From NCBI GenBank assembly GCA_052390515.1, contig JBQTGV010000118.1, forward strand, positions 1 through 43,360: a stretch of DNA of 43,360 nt. Reading direction: 5' to 3'. The translations under genes were made by a program, and so were the position numbers. Below the pieces are notes generated by a model. That model was not told where the DNA came from. It saw nothing but the letters and a program-made list of their open reading frames with translations, and searched no databases. Numbering within the stretch: position 1 is the first letter of the stretch; every line of letters starts with the position of its first letter. Source of the DNA: Candidatus Eiseniibacteriota bacterium (GTDB taxonomy: Bacteria; ARS69). Below are positions 35,106 to 43,360 of this stretch, in pieces.

Positions 35106-37571
35106 CTACCCCGCGGCCTTCGCGCCATCCAGCGCGTCGCGCACCTTCCGGGACAGCGCCTCCAGCGAGAACGGCTTCTGGAGATAGGACGCTTCGGCGT
35201 GCGCGACGCCGTACTTCACCGTGGAATCCTCGGCGGTGTAGCCGGACATGTAGATCACGCGCAGGCCTTTGCGAACGAGCTGCGCGCGCTTGACGAGTTT
35301 GCCGCCGCTCATGCCCGGCATGATCACGTCGGAGAGCAGCAGGTCGATCGCGGGCTCCGGCTTCGCCAGGATCTCCAGCGCGGCCGGACCCGATCCGGCC
35401 TGCAGGACGCGGTAGCCCATGCTCTCGAGAACCTCCACGGCCATCTCGCGCACGTCGATCTCGTCCTCGACCACCAGGATCGTCTCGGTCCCGCGCGGGA
35501 AGTCCGTGCGCAGCGCCACCTCCTGGATCCCCGACGAGCTCTTCGCGTAGACCCGCGGGAAGTGGATGTAGAACGTGGTGCCGACGCCGCGCTCGCTGAC
35601 CACGTCGATCGTGCCGCCGCTCTCTTTGACGATGCCGTACGAGGAGGACAGGCCGAGCCCGGTGCCGCGGCCCTGGCCCTTCGTCGTGAAGTACGGCTCG
35701 AACAGTCGGTTCCGTGTCGACTCGTCCATGCCGCAGCCGTCGTCACGGACCTCGAGCAGCACGCGTCGCGAGGCGGCGTTCGGCCCGCTCGCGTCGCCGG
35801 AGGGTGCTTCCACGTCGGCGCGCGCCACCTTGATCCACAGGTGGCCGCCGTCCGGCATCGCATCCCGGGAGTTGACCGCCAGGTTCATCACGACCTGCTC
35901 GATCTGTCCGCGGTCGCCTTCGATCCGGCAGGCCCTCTCGTCCAGCAGGATCTCCAGCGCGACGTCCGCGCCGACCAGGCTCTTGAGCATCGCCTCGATC
36001 CCGGCGACGACGTCGCGCACGTCCAGCACCTCGGTCTTGTGCACGTCCTTGCGGCTGAACGCCAGCAGCTGCCGGGTGAGCAGCGAGCCGCGGACCGCGG
36101 CCTTGCGGACGCTCTCCACCGTGGTGCGCAGCCGATCCTGGCCGTCCAGCCGGCTGATGATGAGCTCACTCTGGCCCTGGATCACCGCCAGCAGGTTGTT
36201 GAAGTCGTGCGCCACGCCGCCGGCCAGCCTGCCGATGGCCTCCATCTTCTGGGAGTGGCGCAGCTCGGCCTCGAGCCGGCGCTTCTCGGTCACGTCCTGG
36301 AACTCGACCAGCACCACCGGCGCGCCGTCGAGATCGAAGCGGGCCGCGCTCATGTTCACGACCAGCTCGCCTCCCGAGGCGGAGCGGAGCACGCGCTCCG
36401 ACGTGGGCGGGCGCTCCCGGGCGAACGCGCGCGTGTACTCTTGCCACGCCGCCGGCCAGTCGCGCTCGTCGTGCAGCCGCTGGACGGGCAGCCCGACCAG
36501 CTCGGCGAGCCCGATCAGGCGGCACGCTTCGGGATTGGCCAGCACGACCTTCCACGCCTCCGGCTCGACCATGAGCATCGCGTCGGAGCTTCGCTCGAAG
36601 AGCAGCCGGTACCTCGCCTCGGAGCGGCGCAGCGTGTCCAGGTTGCTGAGGTCCTGGATGAGAACGAGGATCTCGTCGGGTCGGCCGTCCGGCCCCTTCA
36701 CCGGCAGCGCCGTCAGATACAGCGTGCGTCCTTCCCCCGCCACCGTGACCTGGAACTCCTGGTGCACGATCTCGTTTTCGCGGAAGGCCCGCGCGATGGG
36801 ACAGCGCCCGCTGCCCGGGTCCGGCCCGGAGAGCCCGATGCGTCGCCACACTTCCTGCAACGGCTGCCCGATCCAGCTCGGCGGTCCTCCTGCGCCGCTC
36901 AGGCGGTCCGCCGTGGCGGTGTTGGTCCAGTGCACCGTGTAGCTCGCGTCGACGACGACCGTGTACGTGTCGCTCTGGTTCACCACGGCGACGAACTTCT
37001 GCCGCTCGCGGTCGAGCATGCGCAGCTGCTGGTCCAGCGTCTTGAAGTAGCGCTCCTGCTGTTCGCGTTCGGCGCGCAACCGCCCCAGGTCCTGGACGCA
37101 CCCGAACCGACCGCCCACCAGGCGAAGGAGCTCGCCGAGCGCCGCCGTGTCCGAGGGATTGGCCAGCGGGCTCGAGCGCGGCGCGGCGAGACACACGGCG
37201 AGGAGCGCGGGGGCGGAGCCGCTGGACCACGCGTGGCACCATACCAGGTGCCGGTCGGCACCCGGAGCGGTCTCTTCCAGCACCGGCTCGCCTCTCTCTC
37301 GCGCGCGTTTCACGACGTCGACGAAGCGGCCGCGCAGCTCCTGGCGGAACGTCTCGTTGGCGGGGTGCCAGAACTCGTCGGCGACGGTTCCGTCGGCGTG
37401 CAGGCGGAACACCGCGGCCAGCCCACCGGACGCGCCCGCGAAGAGAGCCGCCGCGCGGGTCAGCACGACGCCCGGCTTGTCCGCCTCCAGCACCGACGCG
37501 ACCGATGACAGCAGCTCCTGCGAGCTGCCGGAGCCGTTCAGCGCGATGGCTCGGAGGCCGGTGGAGCTCAC
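35106..37571 (-). CDS. Hybrid sensor histidine kinase (GAF-like, two PAS, HisKA, HATPase, receiver; CckA-like)
   Basis: SQKMEAIGRLAGGVAHDFNNLL H-box, NLAVNSRDAM, DDGCGM, FEPYFTTK, GTGLGL. Receiver ILVVED...LLLSDVIMPG...KPF. GTG at 37571 (GTGA overlap). Confidence 0.93.
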   Translation of the reverse strand: MSSTGLRAIALNGSGSSQELLSSVASVLEADKPGVVLTRAAALFAGASGGLAAVFRLHADGTVADEFWHPANETFRQELRGRFVDVVKRARERGEPVLEETAPGADRHLVWCHAWSSGSAPALLAVCLAAPRSSPLANPSDTAALGELLRLVGGRFGCVQDLGRLRAEREQQERYFKTLDQQLRMLDRERQKFVAVVNQSDTYTVVVDASYTVHWTNTATADRLSGAGGPPSWIGQPLQEVWRRIGLSGPDPGSGRCPIARAFRENEIVHQEFQVTVAGEGRTLYLTALPVKGPDGRPDEILVLIQDLSNLDTLRRSEARYRLLFERSSDAMLMVEPEAWKVVLANPEACRLIGLAELVGLPVQRLHDERDWPAAWQEYTRAFARERPPTSERVLRSASGGELVVNMSAARFDLDGAPVVLVEFQDVTEKRRLEAELRHSQKMEAIGRLAGGVAHDFNNLLAVIQGQSELIISRLDGQDRLRTTVESVRKAAVRGSLLTRQLLAFSRKDVHKTEVLDVRDVVAGIEAMLKSLVGADVALEILLDERACRIEGDRGQIEQVVMNLAVNSRDAMPDGGHLWIKVARADVEAPSGDASGPNAASRRVLLEVRDDGCGMDESTRNRLFEPYFTTKGQGRGTGLGLSSSYGIVKESGGTIDVVSERGVGTTFYIHFPRVYAKSSSGIQEVALRTDFPRGTETILVVEDEIDVREMAVEVLESMGYRVLQAGSGPAALEILAKPEPAIDLLLSDVIMPGMSGGKLVKRAQLVRKGLRVIYMSGYTAEDSTVKYGVAHAEASYLQKPFSLEALSRKVRDALDGAKAAG

Positions 37572-38041
37572 GTTCCCGCGACCTGTCGGACGCGGTAGGC
37601 GTGCGCCAGCACGTCCGCGACTCTCTGCACCTTGTCGACGCAGGATTCGCCGAACGCGTTCACGGTGTGGCTGTCGATGTCGATCTGCGCGAAGATACGG
37701 TCGCGGTCGCGGATCAGGATGACGAGCTCTGAGCGGGTCTCGGCGCTGCACGCCAGGTAGTTGGAGACCTCGCGAACGTCGGGGATGTTCAGGTTCCGCC
37801 TCTCGGCGATCGCCGTCCCGCACACTCCCTGACCGACGCCGATGAACACGTGATCGGTGGGCGCGCCGACGAACGGTCCGAGGCGAAGCGTGTTGTCGGG
37901 GAAGAGCTCGTAGATCCCGGTCCAGTCGAAGCAGGGCTCCATCTCGTGGAGCTCCTGGACCGCGGCCTCCAGGATCGCGGAGAACTCGTCGCCGCCCTCC
38001 ACCATGCGCTCGAGCTTCGCCACCAGCTCGTCGATCGTCAT
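37568..38041 (-). CDS. GAF-domain protein, free methionine-R-sulfoxide reductase (fRMsr/MsrC)-like
   Basis: WTGIY, LGPFVG, GVCGTA, YLACS..TRSELV and IDIDS motifs. Confidence 0.85.
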   Translation of the reverse strand: MTIDELVAKLERMVEGGDEFSAILEAAVQELHEMEPCFDWTGIYELFPDNTLRLGPFVGAPTDHVFIGVGQGVCGTAIAERRNLNIPDVREVSNYLACSAETRSELVILIRDRDRIFAQIDIDSHTVNAFGESCVDKVQRVADVLAHAYRVRQVAGT

Positions 38042-38133
38042 TCCTTCCTCCCCGGGGCGGAGGTCGGCAAAAGCCCGCCCGGATGCGCGGCGCGAGAGAT
38101 TCCTCGTTGTATCGACAGGCCCCCGGGAGGGGC

Positions 38134-38502
38134 TTAGCGGTCAGCCAGGCCGGACGGAGGCCCCTCGGAGAGCTCGTCCAGGATGGCCCTGGCGTGGCGG
38201 AGGTGGGGGATCACGATGGATCCGCCGACGATCAGGGCCACGTCGAAGGCCTCGGCGAACTCCGGCTCGGTGACGCCGGCCTTCCGACACTCGATGACGT
38301 GGTAGGTGATGCAGTCGTTGCAGCGCAACACCATGGAGGCGACGAGACCGAGCAGCTCCTTCGTCTTCGCGGGCAGCGCGCCGTCCCGGTAGACGGCGCC
38401 GTCCAGCTGGTAGAAGCGCTTCGTCTCGCGCGTCCCCTCGGCGAGGATCCGCTCGTTCATCGCCGTGCGGAACTCGCGGAACGCGTCGAGCTTCTTTCCC
38501 AC
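38134..38502 (-). CDS. Carboxymuconolactone decarboxylase / AhpD-like protein
   Basis: GALPAKTKELLGLVASMVLRCNDCITYH (CxxC) and VGGSIVIPH motifs. GGAG upstream of the GTG. Confidence 0.88.
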   Translation of the reverse strand: MGKKLDAFREFRTAMNERILAEGTRETKRFYQLDGAVYRDGALPAKTKELLGLVASMVLRCNDCITYHVIECRKAGVTEPEFAEAFDVALIVGGSIVIPHLRHARAILDELSEGPPSGLADR

Positions 38503-39325: not shown

Positions 39326-40279
39326 TCAGAGGTCCGCCTCGCGGATCTCCAGGAAGTCGGCTCCCAGGAAGAGCCAGTGGATGTGCCGGCCGGAGGCGCG
39401 GACCGGCCGCCCGTAGATCACCAGCCGCGAAGCGACGACGCCGCGGTCGATGGACCGGAGGCGAAGATCGGTACGCTCCCCGGACGCCCGCACCACGCGG
39501 ACGGAGAGCTCGTGAGGGAGGAGCAGGTCGCCGTCGGAGTCGCTGCGCACGGTCTGGGCCGGGCGAAGGAGCACCGCGGCGGTCCCGTCGCCCACCGCGT
39601 CGAGGAACTCGCCGTCCTCCGGACCGGCCAACGGCGTCGACTTCGCCCGGTCGCGGAGCTCGACCGAGCCGTCGGGAAGCGGGATCGGTCGCGGGCCTTC
39701 GCCGAAGCCGATCCCGGAGACGGCGCGCACGATCTGGTCGGCGCTCGGGACCAGCCCGTCGCCCCGCGACCAGAGCGGGAAGGTCGCGCCCTCGGCCGGT
39801 GCGTACACCCCGGCGAGAGTGCCGTCGGTCACGACGCGCCACAGGTCCAGCATCTGGAAGTCCGCGCGGAGCCGCGGATTCGCGGAGGAGACGGGGGGCA
39901 GCGCGCGGCCGGTCGCGAGATCGAAGAGGAAGAGCTCGGCGGTGAAGCGGCCGTTCTCGGAAGGGCGCCCGGCGACCAGCAGGCTCCCCGAGGCCGCCAT
40001 GTCCTGGACTTCGGCCACGCCCGGACCGAAGGGGAAGTGGTGCAGGATGCGGTCGCCCTCCAGCACGAAGATGCCGTCGGACTCGGGGACGTGCAACGCC
40101 ACGCGACTCGTGCCGGGGATCACCGTGAACGGCGACGGCACGCGGATCGTGCCGCGCTCGTCGGGGTCGACGGTCACGGCGATGTGAGCCAGCGTGCGGC
40201 CTTCGAGGGGCGGGGCGGGGAAGGCCGGCGCCGCCGCGAGCGCGGGCAGGAGGAGGACGATCGGGAAGAGGGACCGCAT
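39326..40279 (-). CDS. Exported hypothetical protein, beta-rich (propeller-like)
   Basis: Signal peptide MRSLFPIVLLLPALAAAPAFP. Fills the gap between AmpG and recO. No recognisable family. Confidence 0.6.
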   Translation of the reverse strand: MRSLFPIVLLLPALAAAPAFPAPPLEGRTLAHIAVTVDPDERGTIRVPSPFTVIPGTSRVALHVPESDGIFVLEGDRILHHFPFGPGVAEVQDMAASGSLLVAGRPSENGRFTAELFLFDLATGRALPPVSSANPRLRADFQMLDLWRVVTDGTLAGVYAPAEGATFPLWSRGDGLVPSADQIVRAVSGIGFGEGPRPIPLPDGSVELRDRAKSTPLAGPEDGEFLDAVGDGTAAVLLRPAQTVRSDSDGDLLLPHELSVRVVRASGERTDLRLRSIDRGVVASRLVIYGRPVRASGRHIHWLFLGADFLEIREADL

Positions 40280-40326
40280 GGCCGGATGGTATGCCGGCAT
40301 GCCGGCCGGGACCAGAAGGCGGGCGC

Positions 40327-41562
40327 TCACTTCCGCCGCGCCACCCACGGCAGGAGCAGCATCCCCGGCACCCCGGCGGCGATGCTCCAGGCGAAGAACG
40401 CCGCGTAGCCGGCCCGCGCGACCAGAAAGCCGGTCGCCGCGCCGCCGATCGAGCCGGCCACGGCCACCAGGCTCGCGAGCAGCGCGTACTGCGTGGCGGA
40501 GTGCTTCGGGTTGCACAGGCTCATCAGGAAGGCGACGAATCCCGCGGCCACGAAGCCGCCGCAGAGGCTCTCCAGGGCGATCGCCGCGAGCAGCAGCGCC
40601 TTCGACGGCGGCTGCAGCGCCAGCACGCAGAAGCCCGCGTTGGACAGGGACTGCAGCACGCCGAACACGACGAGCGAGCGGAACAGCCCGAACCTCGCCA
40701 CGAAGGCGCCGCCGAGCAGCGCGCCCACGATCGTGATGGCGAAGCCGACGAACTGCCGGATCACGCCCACCTCGCCCGGCGAGAACTGCAGGTGCTGCAG
40801 CAGCAGCGGCATCGTCATGCGCGCGGCGAGCAGATCGGGCAGGCGGAAGAGCAGGATGAACACGAGCACGAGCGCCGCCCTCCGACCCTGGCGGCGGACG
40901 AAGTCCACGAAGGGGAGCGCCGCCGCCTCGGCCAGCGTTTGCGGCCGGGACACGGCCCGCGCCGGCTCGGGAGCGAACGCCGTCGCCGCCGTGCTCGCGA
41001 GCATGAGGACGCCCATGCAGGCGAATGCGGCCCGCCAGCCGACGTGCTGGGCCAGGAGCAAGGACAGCGCGCCCACCACCACCATCGCTGCGCGGTACCC
41101 GCTGACGAACACCGCGGCGCCCGCGCCCAGCTCCTCTTCCTCGACGACGTCGGCGCGGTAAGCGTCGGCGACGATGTCCTGGCTGGCGGAGAGCACGGCG
41201 AGGGCGACGCAGAGGATGGTGAGCGCCCGCAGCGAATCGGAAGGCCCTTCGGGACCGAGCGCCGCCAGCGCGAAGAGCGCCGCCCCCAGCGAGACCTGCA
41301 GCACTACCAGCCAGCCGCGCCTTCGCCCCAGCACCCGGGAGAACGCCGCCCAGCGGTCCATCGCCGGCGCCCACAGGAACTTGAGCGTGTACGGCAGCGT
41401 CACCAGGCTGAAGAGGCCGATCTTCGCCACGTCGACCTGGATGGCGGACAGCCACGCGCTCAGCGTGTCGTTGACCAGCACGTACGGCAGGCCGGACGCG
41501 AAGCCGATCCCGGCGAGCGCCGCCATCTTGCGCCGGCCGTAGACTCCGAAGAACGCGCTCAT
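40327..41562 (-). CDS. ampG: AmpG-family muropeptide MFS transporter
   Basis: GFASGLP, LPYTLKFLWAPAMD, GRRRGW, SASQDIVADAYR and ATQYALLAS motifs. ATG at 41562 (ATGA overlap). Confidence 0.88.
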   Translation of the reverse strand: MSAFFGVYGRRKMAALAGIGFASGLPYVLVNDTLSAWLSAIQVDVAKIGLFSLVTLPYTLKFLWAPAMDRWAAFSRVLGRRRGWLVVLQVSLGAALFALAALGPEGPSDSLRALTILCVALAVLSASQDIVADAYRADVVEEEELGAGAAVFVSGYRAAMVVVGALSLLLAQHVGWRAAFACMGVLMLASTAATAFAPEPARAVSRPQTLAEAAALPFVDFVRRQGRRAALVLVFILLFRLPDLLAARMTMPLLLQHLQFSPGEVGVIRQFVGFAITIVGALLGGAFVARFGLFRSLVVFGVLQSLSNAGFCVLALQPPSKALLLAAIALESLCGGFVAAGFVAFLMSLCNPKHSATQYALLASLVAVAGSIGGAATGFLVARAGYAAFFAWSIAAGVPGMLLLPWVARRK

Positions 41563-42824
41563 GCCGGTGCTGCTCCCGATCCGGAGGGCCGCCGGTAGAA
41601 GAACTCGAGCAGCGGCGTCGTCGCCAGCGTGGTCACGAGCGCCATGACCACGAGCATGGCGAAGAGCGCCGGCGAGAGCAGCCCCAGATCCAGCCCCACG
41701 TTCAGGACGATGAGCTCCATGAGACCCCGCGTGTTCATCAGGACGCCGAGCGCGACCGCCTCGCGCCAGCGGACGCCGGTGAGGCGTGCCGCCAGTGCAC
41801 ATCCGCCGAACTTCCCGGCGGAAGCGACGAGGATGATGATGGCGCAGATCAGCCAATCCCGCACTCCGCTCAGGAGCCCGATCTCCGTGCGCAGCCCGGT
41901 GAACGCGAAGAACGGCGGAAGCAGGAGCACCACGACCATGTCGTGCAGCTTCTCGTGGAGAGCGCGCGCCAGGCCGGAGGCGTGGGGCACCAGCGCGCCG
42001 AGCAGGAACGCGCCGAACAGCGCGTGGATGCCGATCAGCTCCGTGGCGAGCGAGGAGACGAGCAGCGCGACGCAGACGACGGCCATGGTTCCCTGGGTGA
42101 GCGTCCCGCGCGCCTCGTGCGTGCGGACCAGCCGCCGCGCCAGCGGCCGCACCAGCACGAGCATCGCCGTGATGTAGGCCACGGTGAGACCCGCGGTGAG
42201 CAGCGCTCCACCCGGCCGCGCGTGCACGAACCCCACCAGCAGCGCGAGCAGGCACCATGCGCTCACGTCGCCGACCGCGGCGCAGGCCAGCGCCATCGCG
42301 CCGAGCGGGGTCCGGTGCAGTCGCTGGTCGGTCAGGATTCGCGCGAGGACCGGAAACGCGGTGACCGACATCGAGACGCCCATGAACAGCGCGAAGATCG
42401 TGAGCGACGCGCCCGGGGCCGCGAAGCGCGGGTAGAGCCAGAAGGCGAGCGCGGCCCCGAGCAGGAAGGGAACGAGGATGCCCGCGTTGGACACGGCGAT
42501 GGTCTCACGCGTGCGTTGCCTGAGATGGCTCGTGTCGAGCTCGAGCCCCACGAGGAACATGTAGAGGATGATCCCGACCTGGGAGATCACCGCGAGGCTC
42601 GGCGCTACTGCCGGCGGAAAGACGTAGGCGTGGACCTCGGGAGCGACACGCCCCAGGAGCGATGGTCCGAGCAGGATGCCGGCGAGGACCTCGCCGATGA
42701 CCGGCGGCTGACCCAGGCGCCGGAACGCCGCGCCGACGAGCCGCGCGACGACGATGACCACGGTGAGCGCGAGCAGGATGTGCAGCAGGGAATCGCTCGC
42801 GGGTGGGGGAGCCGCAGGATCCAT
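41559..42824 (-). CDS. Cation:proton antiporter (CPA2, Kef-type membrane domain)
   Basis: QPPVIGEVLAGILLGPS, MFLVGLELD, SVTAFPVLARIL, FFAFTGLRT and MNTRGLMELIVLN motifs. Confidence 0.92.
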   Translation of the reverse strand: MDPAAPPPASDSLLHILLALTVVIVVARLVGAAFRRLGQPPVIGEVLAGILLGPSLLGRVAPEVHAYVFPPAVAPSLAVISQVGIILYMFLVGLELDTSHLRQRTRETIAVSNAGILVPFLLGAALAFWLYPRFAAPGASLTIFALFMGVSMSVTAFPVLARILTDQRLHRTPLGAMALACAAVGDVSAWCLLALLVGFVHARPGGALLTAGLTVAYITAMLVLVRPLARRLVRTHEARGTLTQGTMAVVCVALLVSSLATELIGIHALFGAFLLGALVPHASGLARALHEKLHDMVVVLLLPPFFAFTGLRTEIGLLSGVRDWLICAIIILVASAGKFGGCALAARLTGVRWREAVALGVLMNTRGLMELIVLNVGLDLGLLSPALFAMLVVMALVTTLATTPLLEFFYRRPSGSGAAPA

Positions 42825-42830
42825 CGCGGC

Positions 42831-42840
42831 ATTGTAGCAT
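42831..42840. promoter_or_regulatory. Overlapping -10 elements: minus TG-c-TACAAT (leaderless antiporter mRNA) and plus TAGCAT
   Basis: TACAAT at 42836-42831 lies 6 nt before the ATG at 42824 with no SD. TAGCAT at 42835-42840 is on the + strand. Confidence 0.5.
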
Positions 42841-42846
42841 CGAGCG

Positions 42847-43360
42847 GCGCGCGCGTCGCCAGCGGTTCGGCGGGCGAAGGAGGCCTCGGCGAACGCCGGT
42901 CACCACTCGCGAGAGGTGGCACTACCGGCGTCCCCGAGCTCGATCCGTCGCGCTTCGGAGAGCCCTTCCCTTTCGCTCCCCTGGTCACGAAATGGCCCGG
43001 CGGTCCCCGGAGTGGGGTAGGGACACCATCCCGCCGGCGGCGCAGGGTTCACCGGCCCGAAAGCCGATGAGTGGGACGGCGAAGGGGCGGTCAGCGTTTC
43101 CGAGGGTCTCGGCTCCACGACCGCCCCTCACCCCTTGCGCCATCCGGCGTTCCCCGGATGGAATCCTGTGCCGACCGGGTCCAGGTCGGGCCCGCCTCGC
43201 AGCGACGGACGCTGTGCTTTACGCAATCGACGTACCACTTCGCTGGTGCGCGGGGAACGGCGTCGAAACGTGTCGGAGAGGGGCTTCCCCGGCGTTTCGC
43301 CGCTCGCGCGGTGCGGAGGCCGAATCGCCGCGCCGCGGACCTGTCCAGCCGCCTGGACAC
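42847..43360 (+). ncRNA. Candidate large structured non-coding RNA (family not recognised; may continue beyond the window)
   Basis: No credible ORF. More than ten nested or adjacent helices of 5-10 bp, G-U pairs mostly on the + strand, and GCGA/GAAA-type loops. Confidence 0.5.

Follow-up and report, generated by a model that had tools for sequence, protein, structure and literature searches.

A conserved, covarying 332-nt RNA behind a sigma-54-type promoter in an uncultured bacterial lineage, probably the product of an activator-controlled gene

The 43,360-nt window analysed here (the whole stretch of contig JBQTGV010000118.1, from a Candidatus Eiseniibacteriota bacterium) ends in a region that the preliminary description took for a plus-strand structured RNA of about 500 nt, filling 42847-43360. 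The conserved element is smaller and lies on the opposite strand: it runs from 43213 to 42882 on the minus strand, about 332 nt, while positions 43214-43360 lie outside the RNA and comprise a sigma-54-type promoter and a palindromic site of the activator type. The features at this end of the window are:

39326-40279, minus strand: beta-propeller protein gene (signal-peptide-like N-terminus; AF2 pLDDT 90.3; generic propeller matches)
40327-41571, minus strand: MFS transporter gene (Pfam MFS_1, E 4.2e-24)
41559-42824, minus strand: Na+/H+ exchanger (antiporter) gene (Pfam Na_H_Exchanger, E 2.3e-58)
42882-43213, minus strand: the structured RNA
43223-43237, minus strand: sigma-54-type promoter TGGTAC-N5-TTGC, with the -24 GG at 43235-36 and the -12 GC at 43223-24
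43342-43359, no strand assigned: palindrome TGTCCAG-N4-CTGGACA, a putative UAS for a sigma-54 activator

Assignment to the minus strand rests on fold energy, an excess of G.U pairs and the oligo(A) that ends one RNA-library contig on its low-coordinate side. Over 42847-43360 the MFE z-score is -3.83 on the minus strand (0 of 100 shuffles fold as well) and -1.57 on the plus strand (7 of 100), so that the claim of more structure than chance stands for the minus strand and falls for the plus strand, for which it was made; the exact transcript, 42882-43213 on the minus strand, reaches -6.21, again with 0 of 100 shuffles folding as well. The consensus fold has an energy of -81.15 kcal/mol on the minus strand versus -50.17 on the plus strand, and its helices contain 91 G.U cells, legal only on the minus strand, versus 18 A.C cells, the reverse of the earlier statement that G-U pairs favour the plus strand. 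The proposed plus-strand -10 element TAGCAT is not among the hits of a sigma-70 scan, which gave 0 sites. On z-score, consensus energy, G.U count and the oligo(A) end alike, a plus-strand RNA is rejected.

The view that the region matches no known RNA family is upheld: Rfam 15 gave 0 matches at the gathering score in the whole window, 0 at E<=10 in 42700-43360 and 0 at gathering in nine homologous loci, and no description of the 332-nt RNA was found in the literature searched. The reported lack of a credible reading frame is likewise borne out, the ORFs called in 42847-43360 being of the spurious type that high GC predicts. No ATG-ORF is common to the 12 known homologs, on which ground a small ORF was rejected, and five of the 12 contain no ATG-ORF at all. 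RNase P, tmRNA, 6S and SRP RNA resemble the present RNA in being free-standing, structured and 100-400 nt long, but the first two and SRP RNA score above cut-off in all five genomes tested (that of the window and four relatives), and 6S RNA does so in two and falls below cut-off in the rest; since each is found elsewhere in all five, the RNA is none of these and a divergent housekeeping RNA is rejected. An rRNA-operon leader at the contig end is rejected as well, relatives' contigs running on to both sides without rRNA.

Twelve copies of the RNA are known, ten of them in a small, deep lineage, where nine of the 12 genomes have it, and two on metagenome contigs. The window locus is single-copy in its own genome (G000), stands at a contig end and is syntenic across nine genomes; one relative (G002) has two copies, the RNA having been duplicated together with the propeller gene. 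All homolog searches used one covariance model, R1, which scores 257.5 bits on 42866-43213 of the minus strand, and an R1 search under stricter filters found no match in 139 genomes from other families. A two-block pattern matched at least 120 metagenome stretches, of which 80 were examined; two of these 80 listed matches are true homologs and the other 78 unrelated sequences, so a wide distribution is rejected. A three-block pattern gave 0 matches in metagenomes, and a Trebonia match from the genome collection is a chance one (10.9 bits).

In the alignment 83 of 376 columns are invariant, while the flanking proteins are only 40-57% identical. It holds 12 sequences of one narrow clade, with an effective number of 2.08, and because it was fitted to the model the pairing counts that follow are inflated. 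The search for homologs and covariation suggested at the outset yielded these 12 copies and 21 pairs that change on both sides, versus 1-7 such pairs when the partners are slid. The 13-helix consensus has 94.4% of its cells paired, versus 36-54% with slid partners, and 0 of 500 shuffles match it in any of five measures. It begins with a hairpin at the 5' end and finishes with a long terminal hairpin at the 3' end, and between them two long-range helices close a central domain; its helices, all on the minus strand, are:

P1, 43204-10 / 43190-96: the 5' hairpin, which holds the invariant GUCCGU (43205-10); 97.6% of cells paired, one pair changing on both sides and three varying between G-C and G-U or U-A and U-G
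P2, 43188-89 and 43183-85 with 42968-70 and 42963-64: long-range helix that helps to close the central multi-helix domain
P3, 43175-81 / 42994-43000: long-range helix that helps to close the same domain; four of seven pairs change on both sides, 93.8% of cells paired
P4, 43152-62: small hairpin adjoining an invariant GGGGAA; three pairs with C-G/U-G variation, 91.7% paired
P5, 43138-45 / 43074-81: encloses P6 and a variable apical hairpin (span 43074-43145); 90.4% paired
P6, 43118-26 / 43085-93: inside P5; 94.4% paired, three pairs changing on both sides
P7, 43063-71 / 43048-56: hairpin of nine pairs, four changing on both sides; 95.4% paired
P8, 43043-47 / 43031-36: hairpin of four pairs, two changing on both sides; 95.7% paired
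P10, 42987-90 / 42973-76: hairpin flanked by the 3' arms of P3 and P2 (42963-43000); 87.5% paired, no compensatory change
P11, 42926-38 / 42885-98 plus a variable apical stem: the 3' terminal hairpin (span 42885-42938), 13 pairs, six changing on both sides; 96.8% paired

Four stretches are invariant, namely GUCCGU in P1, GCCGUCC at 43074-80 within the P5 region, the 13-mer ACCAGGGGAGCGA (42973-85), which is presented by P10 and identical in 12 of 12 copies, and CUCGCG (42908-13), which caps P11. The apical loop of P11 has the self-complementary UCGCGA in nine of 12 copies, a sequence that could mediate loop-loop dimerisation. An invariant local hairpin, 43171-76/43184-89, competes with the long-range P3.

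Several of the helices first proposed reappear in this fold in minus-strand form. The pairings 42885-89/42934-38 and 42893-900/42924-31, with the 'GCGA-capped' stem above them, agree with the covarying terminal hairpin P11, whose cap is what the plus strand reads as GCGA; 43083-92/43119-28, with 43100-12 inside, agrees with the covariation-supported model, and 43053-66 is the apical part of the hairpin 43048-56/43063-71. The remaining proposals fare worse, with 75.7% of cells paired against 94.4% for the model: 42997-43003/43031-37 is paired in only 54%, the long-range 42944-51/43202-09 in 75-81%, with its 3' arm falling in the well-supported local 5' hairpin, and 43171-89, although 94% paired, is invariant and competes with a covarying long-range helix. 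Those at 43227-31/43262-66, 43232-49, 43307-16/43328-37 and 43342-59, together with the arm 43278-85 of the supposed pseudoknot, fall beyond 43213, ahead of the point at which transcription is predicted to begin and in a stretch over which the homologs are not alignable, and the supposed stem at 43342-59 is the TGTCCAG/CTGGACA palindrome itself.

The RNA is present in assemblies from RNA libraries. Metatranscriptome contigs 100% identical to it span 42882-43037 and 42890-43040, and the first of these carries, in RNA sense, ten non-templated A's after 42882 (one contig from one run), so that a 3' end is observed at 42882, 3 nt past the P11 hairpin; transcription is predicted to start at about 43210-43213. 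RNA-library contigs from two runs (X4 and X5) cover the RNA without the adjacent antiporter gene, a gene that is covered in a DNA run (X1), though missing cover in X4 and X5, for the antiporter gene and for the RNA's 5' half, is no proof by itself. These expression data consist of assembled contigs at a depth of 2-3.2 (exact matches), from which strand and level are not readable alone and in which carry-over of DNA is possible. With conservation, covariation, transcription and a place outside Rfam together, the suggestion of a novel large non-coding RNA is supported.

Upstream, the -24/-12 consensus of sigma-54 promoters is well established, and a motif of this type, (T/C)GG(C/T)(A/C)C-N5-(T/A)TGC, stands 11-14 nt before the conserved CGTCCGT in all 12 copies. 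As a motif alone it is not rarer than chance, strict matches genome-wide numbering 8 versus about 11 expected; rpoN is present in all five genomes tested. The palindrome at 43342-43359 precedes the RNA start by about 130-147 nt, and TGTCCAG/CTGGACA half-sites occur 130-230 nt upstream as a pair in ten of 12 loci and singly in the other two (L007 and L008). The full palindrome has one occurrence in the 4.27-Mb G000 assembly, versus 623 single half-sites.

A gene for a TPR-domain sigma-54 activator (domains TPR, Sigma54_activat and HTH_8) lies directly upstream of the RNA in eight of the 11 loci other than the window's. It is 3.7 kb upstream in one genome (G010) and on another contig in a second (G007), and a hybrid kinase takes its place at the second G002 copy. 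In the window's genome the activator gene sits past position 43360, across a small assembly gap: the ortholog is cut at the edge of a second contig (C214), and no exact end overlap joins that contig to the window's own (C118). A protein gene was thus located after 43360, as had been anticipated, and it encodes this activator, not the protein of a mobile element. A DUF502 gene lies upstream of the activator in relatives and was not found in G000 (tblastn, 1e-5).

On the other side, orthologs of the propeller gene are directly downstream of the RNA in nine of nine relative loci and in the locus L066, and wherever the flank is available the RNA is upstream of this gene and co-oriented with it. 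In one complete genome (G004) the neighbours of the RNA are the activator and the propeller gene. Only in G000 is the Na+/H+ exchanger gene next downstream; there it and the MFS gene, unrelated genes, lie between the RNA and the propeller gene, yet the RNA is fully conserved. RNA, orthologous activator and propeller protein co-occur exactly, in the same nine of 12 genomes, and form one inherited module. In the window and in L006, L009, L011, L012 and L066, the start codon of the gene that follows the RNA is preceded at 6-9 nt by a TAnnnT hexamer. The window has TACAAT (42831-36) 6 nt before the exchanger ATG, which may be that gene's own promoter, and TACCAT 6 nt before the propeller ATG (40279). 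At such a leaderless distance these hexamers suggest that the downstream genes have promoters of their own.

Intrinsic terminators with U-runs follow the fold by 20-50 nt in L005, L006, L010, L013 and L066, with weaker ones in L007 and L008, so that six to seven of the 12 copies have one, in non-conserved sequence; the other five, the window's included, have no recognisable terminator, and read-through is likely there.

We think it probable that this is a new structured-RNA family and that the minus-strand element is a discrete RNA gene under activator control. In the mechanism we propose, the enhancer-binding protein with TPR domain, whose gene lies just upstream in the same orientation, would act through the TGTCCAG/CTGGACA palindrome, and transcription would be driven by the RNA's own sigma-54 (-24/-12) promoter. 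The transcript would stop at or just past the terminal hairpin, behind which roughly half of the lineages have an intrinsic terminator as a distinct element, and would work as a signal-induced riboregulator whose invariant loops may interact with other RNAs or with a protein. Base pairing between the RNA and the region around the start of the propeller mRNA was rejected, with z-scores of -0.9 to +1.1 in six loci other than the window's and differing RNA segments.

The main alternative, possible though on balance unlikely, is that the RNA is a cis-acting 5' leader of the riboswitch or attenuator type, which detects a ligand or protein and governs whether transcripts begun at the sigma-54 promoter run on into the propeller gene. 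Its constant position upstream of that gene in the same orientation, their exact co-occurrence and their joint duplication in G002 would suit a leader, as would a size and complexity within the range of large riboswitches and a conserved local hairpin that is mutually exclusive with P3, as in a switching RNA. The presence of a terminator between RNA and gene in six to seven of 12 copies and its lack elsewhere could likewise mean conditional read-through. However, the terminators lie 20-50 nt beyond the fold in sequence that is not conserved, and their 3' arms pair with the RNA (a search for antiterminators, the invariant loop included) no better than do shuffled arms at seven of seven loci. 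The apparent promoters of the downstream genes also speak against a leader, no design for sequestering a Shine-Dalgarno sequence is seen, and in G000 the first gene downstream is an unrelated antiporter, with two genes intervening before the propeller gene, so that read-through there would enter an antiporter-MFS-propeller operon. The RNA-library contigs end at the terminal hairpin, though terminated leaders would look alike. Large riboswitch leaders and attenuators resemble the present RNA in preceding a gene read in the same direction, in folding intricately, in having terminators behind about half of the copies and in conserving two helices that exclude each other; they differ in having an expression platform that overlaps the fold, and no known aptamer matches here.

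More speculatively, the RNA may be no ordinary base-pairing sRNA but a large one with a tertiary fold and a job of its own, as a ligand or protein sensor, a ribozyme or a self-assembling scaffold, switched on by the TPR sensor and sigma-54 together with an exported beta-propeller protein; we regard this as doubtful.

Conservation for a reason other than RNA function, whether because the stretch behind the promoter regulates at the level of DNA or because it encodes a small protein, seems very improbable. The invariant blocks could be binding sites for proteins on DNA, and CTCGCG(A) is nearly palindromic as DNA, but 21 helix pairs have changed on both sides in compensation and stems vary in length between fixed blocks, both of which argue for function at the RNA level, and the lack of a common ORF (or, in five of 12 copies, of any ATG-ORF) and the presence of the region in metatranscriptome assemblies point the same way. 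Slimmer still is the chance of the plus-strand RNA of a mobile or retro-element first suggested (group II intron domain I, IS110 bridge RNA, IS200/605 omega RNA or an RT-associated RNA), for which the contig-end location, where repeats often break assemblies, and the C-GCGA-G hairpin cap, a GNRA tetraloop on the plus strand, could be cited, since the locus is single-copy in G000 and syntenic in nine genomes, the gene past the window end encodes a sigma-54 activator, a scan of neighbouring genes found no transposase, TnpB or RT, no intron covariance model or HEARO entry in Rfam matches, the plus strand folds like shuffles with a much weaker consensus and the unfavourable G.U to A.C ratio given above, and the oligo(A) end fits a minus-strand RNA.

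Among known systems the closest in design is Pxr/Nla19 of Myxococcus and relatives. There, pxr lies downstream of the sigma-54 regulator gene nla19 and has its own sigma-54 promoter, with a spacer of 262 nt and an RNA of 108 nt (PMC5568312). The present locus shares with it a non-coding RNA whose gene comes straight after that of a sigma-54 enhancer-binding protein and is read in the same direction, a spacer of a few hundred nt that leads to the RNA's own sigma-54 promoter, and a transcript of several stem-loops (PMC5568312). Against the three stem-loops given there for Pxr, the RNA described here is, at about 332 nt, three times larger and has 13 helices, long-range ones included (PMC5568312). 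Nla19 has a response-regulator receiver domain where the present activator has a TPR sensor, the lineages are unrelated, and the present RNA has no Rfam match and is strictly linked to a propeller-protein gene.

GlmY, with GlrR in enterobacteria, is likewise a regulatory RNA that needs sigma-54 and a dedicated activator, and so, reportedly, is Qrr with LuxO in Vibrio, although here the dependence is read from sequence. Qrr and GlmY are proteobacterial RNAs of about 100-200 nt with a simple fold, of the Hfq or protein-decoy type, and no similarity in sequence or structure to either was detected. The promoter, the adjacent activator and rpoN that go with Pxr, Qrr and GlmY are found here; their short simple fold with its own terminator is not.

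OLE, GOLLD, ROOL, raiA and HEARO are large orphan structured bacterial RNAs, presumably all in the Rfam release searched. Like them, the present RNA is several hundred nt long, has many covarying helices and invariant loops, is restricted to a lineage and has a function not evident from context. Unlike them, it comes with a recognisable sigma-54 promoter and an activator devoted to it and with a protein gene as constant partner, and no Rfam entry matches at E<=10.

The case also shows how synteny can explain an apparently orphan region at a contig end, where the strand call made from reading the sequence had been wrong. The RNA adds a well-supported new family to the short list of large, intricate bacterial RNAs without known function, and it is unusual among these in having an explicit regulatory handle, with a sigma-54 promoter of its own, an activator that has a TPR sensor and an activator site that is unique, as well as a fixed protein partner, so that its biology is testable by heterologous reconstitution even though the lineage is uncultured. 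With it, the order of activator gene, sigma-54 promoter and ncRNA familiar from Pxr and Qrr is seen in a remote lineage of phylum rank and with an RNA of far greater size. If the sensor, ribozyme or scaffold reading were true, the RNA, its activator and the propeller protein would be the three parts of a signalling module confined to one uncultured lineage that branches deeply.

The DNA between 42847 and 43360 carries a conserved, structured non-coding RNA of a new family, which we place on the minus strand at 42882-43213 (about 332 nt) and whose transcription is partly shown. The region is single-copy in the source assembly (G000; 4.27 Mb in 223 contigs), the only further matches being 59-64-nt stretches at 75-78% identity, and, because the window takes in contig C118 from end to end, it abuts the contig end and the sequence past 43360 cannot be read directly. 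Rfam returned no match at gathering score in the window, none at E<=10 in 42700-43360 and none in nine homologous loci, ARAGORN found neither tRNA nor tmRNA, and a literature search, which covered papers without their supplementary files, found no description of this RNA. With no Rfam family and a conserved fold, the novel structured RNA of the preliminary description holds up, as does the lack of a credible ORF (none is conserved among the homologs, and five of the 12 have no ATG-ORF at all); the strand given for it was wrong, and one end was drawn about 180 nt too far out.

Features of the locus
43342-59: palindrome TGTCCAG-N4-CTGGACA, 130-147 nt upstream of the RNA start
43237-43223, minus strand: predicted sigma-54-type promoter TGGTAC-GTCGA-TTGC, fitting the -24 GG / -12 GC consensus
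42831-42836, minus strand: TACAAT, 6 nt before the antiporter ATG
41559-42824, minus strand: Na+/H+ exchanger gene, adjoining the RNA region
40286-40291, minus strand: TAnnnT hexamer before the propeller gene
39326-40279, minus strand: propeller protein gene, the G000 ortholog

In 40 other genomes searched by BLAST, the central ~290 nt recurred at 71-77% identity in eight of the 11 from the same family and in none of the 29 from other families. Family, order and phylum, in the taxonomy used, comprise an identical set of 12 species genomes, and the lineage is therefore small, deep-branching and uncultured; nine of the 12 carry the RNA, one of them (G002) in two copies. A three-block pattern scanned across a collection of 185,579 species genomes matched ten stretches, nine identical to known copies and the tenth, titled Trebonia, a chance match at 10.9 bits. 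The same pattern had no match in the metagenome collection; a looser, two-block pattern matched at least 120 stretches there, and two of the 80 examined fit R1, our covariance model of the RNA (copies L066 and L073, at 139 and 188 bits), the other 78 being unrelated sequences. R1 run under stricter filters against 139 other-family genomes gave no match. Because the genome, metagenome and R1 searches added only L066 and L073, the family total stands at 12 copies. Their alignments consist of invariant blocks with stems between them that vary in length and sequence, which, as judged from the alignments, is a non-coding pattern; the proteins flanking the RNA are only 38-57% identical among loci.

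The plus-strand placement in the preliminary description is contradicted by fold energies, by the kinds of pair in the helices and by the predicted promoter on the minus strand. Folded in the plus sense, the interval 42847-43360 is not above chance (MFE z -1.57, with 7/100 shuffles equally good); in the minus sense none of 100 shuffles is as good (z -3.83), and the 42882-43213 transcript reaches -199.2 kcal/mol against -167.7 +/- 5.1 in shuffles (z -6.21). In the minus sense the consensus fold comes to -81.15 kcal/mol with 71 pairs (covariation term -2.95), in the plus sense to -50.17 kcal/mol with 59 pairs (+0.2), and the consensus helices hold 91 G.U cells, legal in the minus sense only, vs 18 A.C cells, a count biased toward the sense used for structure prediction. 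The source of the strand error is probably the invariant hairpin cap, which on the plus strand is C-GCGA-G, a GNRA loop, and in the RNA sense CUCGCG, within near-palindromic sequence.

R1 has 343 positions and 71 pairs, and each of the 12 copies can be aligned to it, with scores of 139-290 bits. Covariation is seen on this alignment, which holds 12 sequences of one clade (effective number 2.08) and is fitted to the model: standard pairs fill 94.4% of 843 cells vs 36-54% with the partners shifted 1-3 columns, pairs changed on both sides number 21 vs 1-7 in the shifted controls, and none of 500 column shuffles reached the observed value on any of five measures.

Helices (P1-P11) and invariant runs of the RNA
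43204-10 with 43190-96, minus strand: P1, 5' hairpin, R1 consensus
43188-89 with 42963-64 and 43183-85 with 42968-70, minus strand: P2, long-range, R1 consensus
43175-81 with 42994-43000, minus strand: P3, long-range, compensatory in 4/7 pairs
43160-62 with 43152-54, minus strand: P4, R1 consensus
43138-45 with 43074-81, minus strand: P5, encloses P6, R1 consensus
43118-26 with 43085-93, minus strand: P6, inside P5, R1 consensus
43063-71 with 43048-56, minus strand: P7, four compensatory pairs
43043-47 with 43031-36, minus strand: P8, R1 consensus
43016-17 with 43005-06, minus strand: P9, R1 consensus
42987-90 with 42973-76, minus strand: P10, R1 consensus
42926-38 with 42885-98, minus strand: P11, 3' terminal hairpin, six compensatory pairs
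43205-10, minus strand: invariant run GUCCGU
43074-80, minus strand: invariant run GCCGUCC
42973-85, minus strand: invariant run ACCAGGGGAGCGA
42908-13, minus strand: invariant run CUCGCG

Among the helices drawn earlier, those matching P11 and P6, and the apical part of P7, recur here; the others have 75.7% of cells paired and show no clear covariation, 42997-43003/43031-37 reaching only 54%. The hairpin 43171-76/43184-89, also drawn earlier, is 94% paired, invariant and mutually exclusive with P2 and P3. This fully conserved local hairpin, CCGACC/GGUCGG (43171-43189), excludes the covarying long-range P3 (43175-81/42994-43000), and it may be a co-transcriptional folding intermediate, an alternative conformer or a switch. 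In nine of the 12 copies the invariant apical loop CUCGCG has an A directly after it, which makes the self-complementary UCGCGA (the window reads CUCGCGAG), a loop that could permit loop-loop RNA dimerisation.

From the runs containing some of the window, three metatranscriptome runs (X4, X5 and X9) and one DNA run (X1) were compared, all as assembled contigs, which are silent on level and, save for an oligo(A) end, on strand. RNA-library contigs, two of them matching at 100%, lend modest support to transcription at the RNA. A 166-nt contig of X4 corresponds to 42882-43037 without a mismatch, and its other ten letters are T's before 42882 (plus strand) that differ from the genome; read in the minus sense, they are an oligo(A) tail attached 3 nt past the terminal hairpin. 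A 151-nt contig of X5, from the same study, lies on 42890-43040 with no mismatches, and in X9, a separate study, a 188-nt contig of a close relative lies on 42938-43128 with five mismatches and three gaps. The evidence, with depths of 2-3.2 for the exact matches and a single tailed contig, is modest and fits a minus-strand RNA with its 3' end at about 42882. The other X4, X5 and X9 pieces on the window are short (19-55 nt), and each one in the antiporter gene has 2-6 mismatches. The antiporter gene does have coverage in the DNA run X1. The relative's RNA contig in X9, a soil metatranscriptome, has a word depth of 51 and other X9 pieces 2-4.6, which only hints that the RNA can be abundant because contig depths cannot rank expression. 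Several DNA runs (among X3, X6-X8 and X10) from different habitats share the same small fraction (0.10-0.15) of the window's 31-mers.

Past the conserved fold, by 20-50 nt, L005, L006, L010, L013 and L066 carry a strong GC hairpin with a U-run, and L007 and L008 a GC hairpin with a poorer one; no terminator hairpin past the fold was found in the window, L009, L011, L012 or L073. The 3' arms of the terminators had no alternative RNA partner better than shuffled arms in 7/7 loci, and there is therefore no sign of an antiterminator.

At the other end, conservation stops sharply at 43212-43213, and 11-14 nt before CGTCCGT, the conserved block that comes first on the minus strand, all ten genomic and both metagenome copies have (T/C)GG(C/T)(A/C)C-N5-(T/A)TGC, the sigma-54 consensus being TGGCAC-N5-TTGC with -24 GG and -12 GC. 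This predicted promoter would place the start of the RNA at about 43210-43213. Since a single match is not rare (eight strict matches in the genome vs about 11 expected from base composition), the promoter case rests on the fixed distance in 12/12 copies amid unalignable flanks. The sigma-54 gene rpoN (Sigma54_DBD) is present in all five genomes tested. The stretch 43214-43360, earlier counted as RNA, lies upstream of the start in this model and holds the promoter and the palindrome instead. TGTCCAG/CTGGACA half-sites occur 130-230 nt upstream, paired in 10/12 loci and single in L007 and L008; the full palindrome is found exactly once in the assembly and isolated half-sites 623 times. By its form and its position, which agrees with the typical location of such sites, the palindrome is a putative enhancer-binding-protein site.

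A sigma-54 activator (Sigma54_activat plus HTH_8; 820-910 residues at full length, with MalT-like TPR repeats N-terminal) is encoded upstream on the RNA strand in L006, L007, L008, L009, L010, L013, L066 and L073. The exceptions to its lying directly upstream are G007, G010 and the second G002 copy, which follows a hybrid histidine kinase gene. The RNA-plus-propeller pair occurs twice in G002, on contigs C34 (L005) and C11 (L013): the TPR-activator precedes one pair, a hybrid histidine kinase/response-regulator gene the other. A single orthologous activator was found in G002. In L011 and L012 (G007 and G010, both of genus g8) a DUF4143/AAA_14 ATPase gene lies between activator and RNA promoter, the activator being 3.7 kb further upstream in G010 and on another contig in G007. 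The G000 ortholog, on the 4.5-kb contig C214, is 57% identical over residues 147-822 of 909 and runs off the contig edge, its last ~87 residues absent; because of this truncation, there is most likely an assembly gap past 43360, a few hundred bases long, followed by the activator gene's 3' end, and no exact end overlap between C118 and C214 was found. Beyond the window there is probably this activator gene, and not the protein gene of a mobile or RT-associated element that was proposed earlier.

Downstream of the RNA one conserved protein without a Pfam match is encoded in all nine relative loci and L066, directly after the RNA in each. Members of its family are few (5.8 billion sequences yielded 20 clusters, every one unnamed or 'hypothetical'); the N-terminus is signal-peptide-like, as judged by eye, and the structure, predicted at high confidence, is an all-beta propeller (pLDDT 90.3, pTM 0.89) with generic likeness to WD40, NHL, YVTN and BamB propellers (TM 0.4-0.53, 7-13% identity). 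In G000 only, two transporter genes (Na+/H+ exchanger and MFS/AmpG-like; 40327-42824, minus strand) separate the RNA from the propeller gene, and the two appear to have been inserted into the module. A RecO gene follows the propeller gene in G000, G011 and L066. Past the module (35106-38502, minus strand; L169) synteny extends to the genes for RecO, for CMD-family and GAF-domain proteins and for a PAS-rich hybrid histidine kinase; G004 has the GAF gene at its locus too. The RNA co-occurs exactly with the propeller protein (present twice in G002) and with the orthologous TPR-activator (48-93% identity, E<=1e-108): all three are in the same nine of the 12 genomes. The three module-less genomes (100, 82 and 73% complete) all have rpoN; two have only activator paralogs of 25-28% identity, and G005 has no match.

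In myxobacteria, pxr lies downstream of nla19 in the order found here: activator gene, spacer, sigma-54 promoter and ncRNA (PMC5568312). The present RNA is three times larger than pxr, with long-range helices and a multi-helix core, and its activator is TPR-type, not receiver-type. The Qrr RNAs with LuxO show a looser form of the arrangement, as does GlmY with GlrR. The RNA shares a design with Pxr, Qrr and GlmY, not a family, and matches no Rfam model. OLE, GOLLD, ROOL and raiA are orphan large structured RNAs, which the present RNA resembles in size and intricacy. By kind it belongs either with the activator-linked sigma-54 ncRNAs or with these large orphans.

We favour, with some reserve, an activator-driven RNA of about 332 nt that exists as a separate species. 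A signal sensed by the TPR region would activate the enhancer-binding protein, which on the TGTCCAG/CTGGACA site would cause sigma-54 polymerase to fire from the -24/-12 promoter; the RNA would be made and take up its 13-helix fold, the fold being shown and transcription partly shown. The transcript would end at the terminal hairpin, or at the terminator if present, with some read-through if absent, and the RNA may build up as a discrete species, its invariant single-stranded elements perhaps acting on protein or other RNAs in a pathway shared with the exported propeller protein. Rather unlikely, in our estimate, is that the same transcript acts in cis as a regulatory leader for the propeller gene, a reading whose strongest points are the exact co-inheritance of the two, their co-duplication and the competing conserved helices. 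TAnnnT hexamers, which have the form of -10 elements, stand 6-9 nt before the propeller start codon in the window, L006, L009, L011, L012 and L066 and 31-37 nt before it in L005 and L007, and suggest separate promoters for the downstream genes, with leaders short or absent. Variants before start codons are TACAAT, TACCAT and TACATT, that of the propeller gene being nearly constant (TACCAT) across genomes. The discrete RNA and the leader are compatible, not mutually exclusive. A plus-strand or mobile-element RNA and a non-RNA explanation are, even jointly, very improbable, and a housekeeping RNA is rejected: RNase P, tmRNA, SRP and 6S RNAs all lie elsewhere in G000 and four relatives, the first three above family cut-off in 5/5 genomes and 6S above it in 2/5 and below in the rest.

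Within a single small and uncultured lineage, the RNA is linked to a propeller protein and to a dedicated sigma-54 control system; its distribution is narrow, its anatomy solid and its control logic testable.
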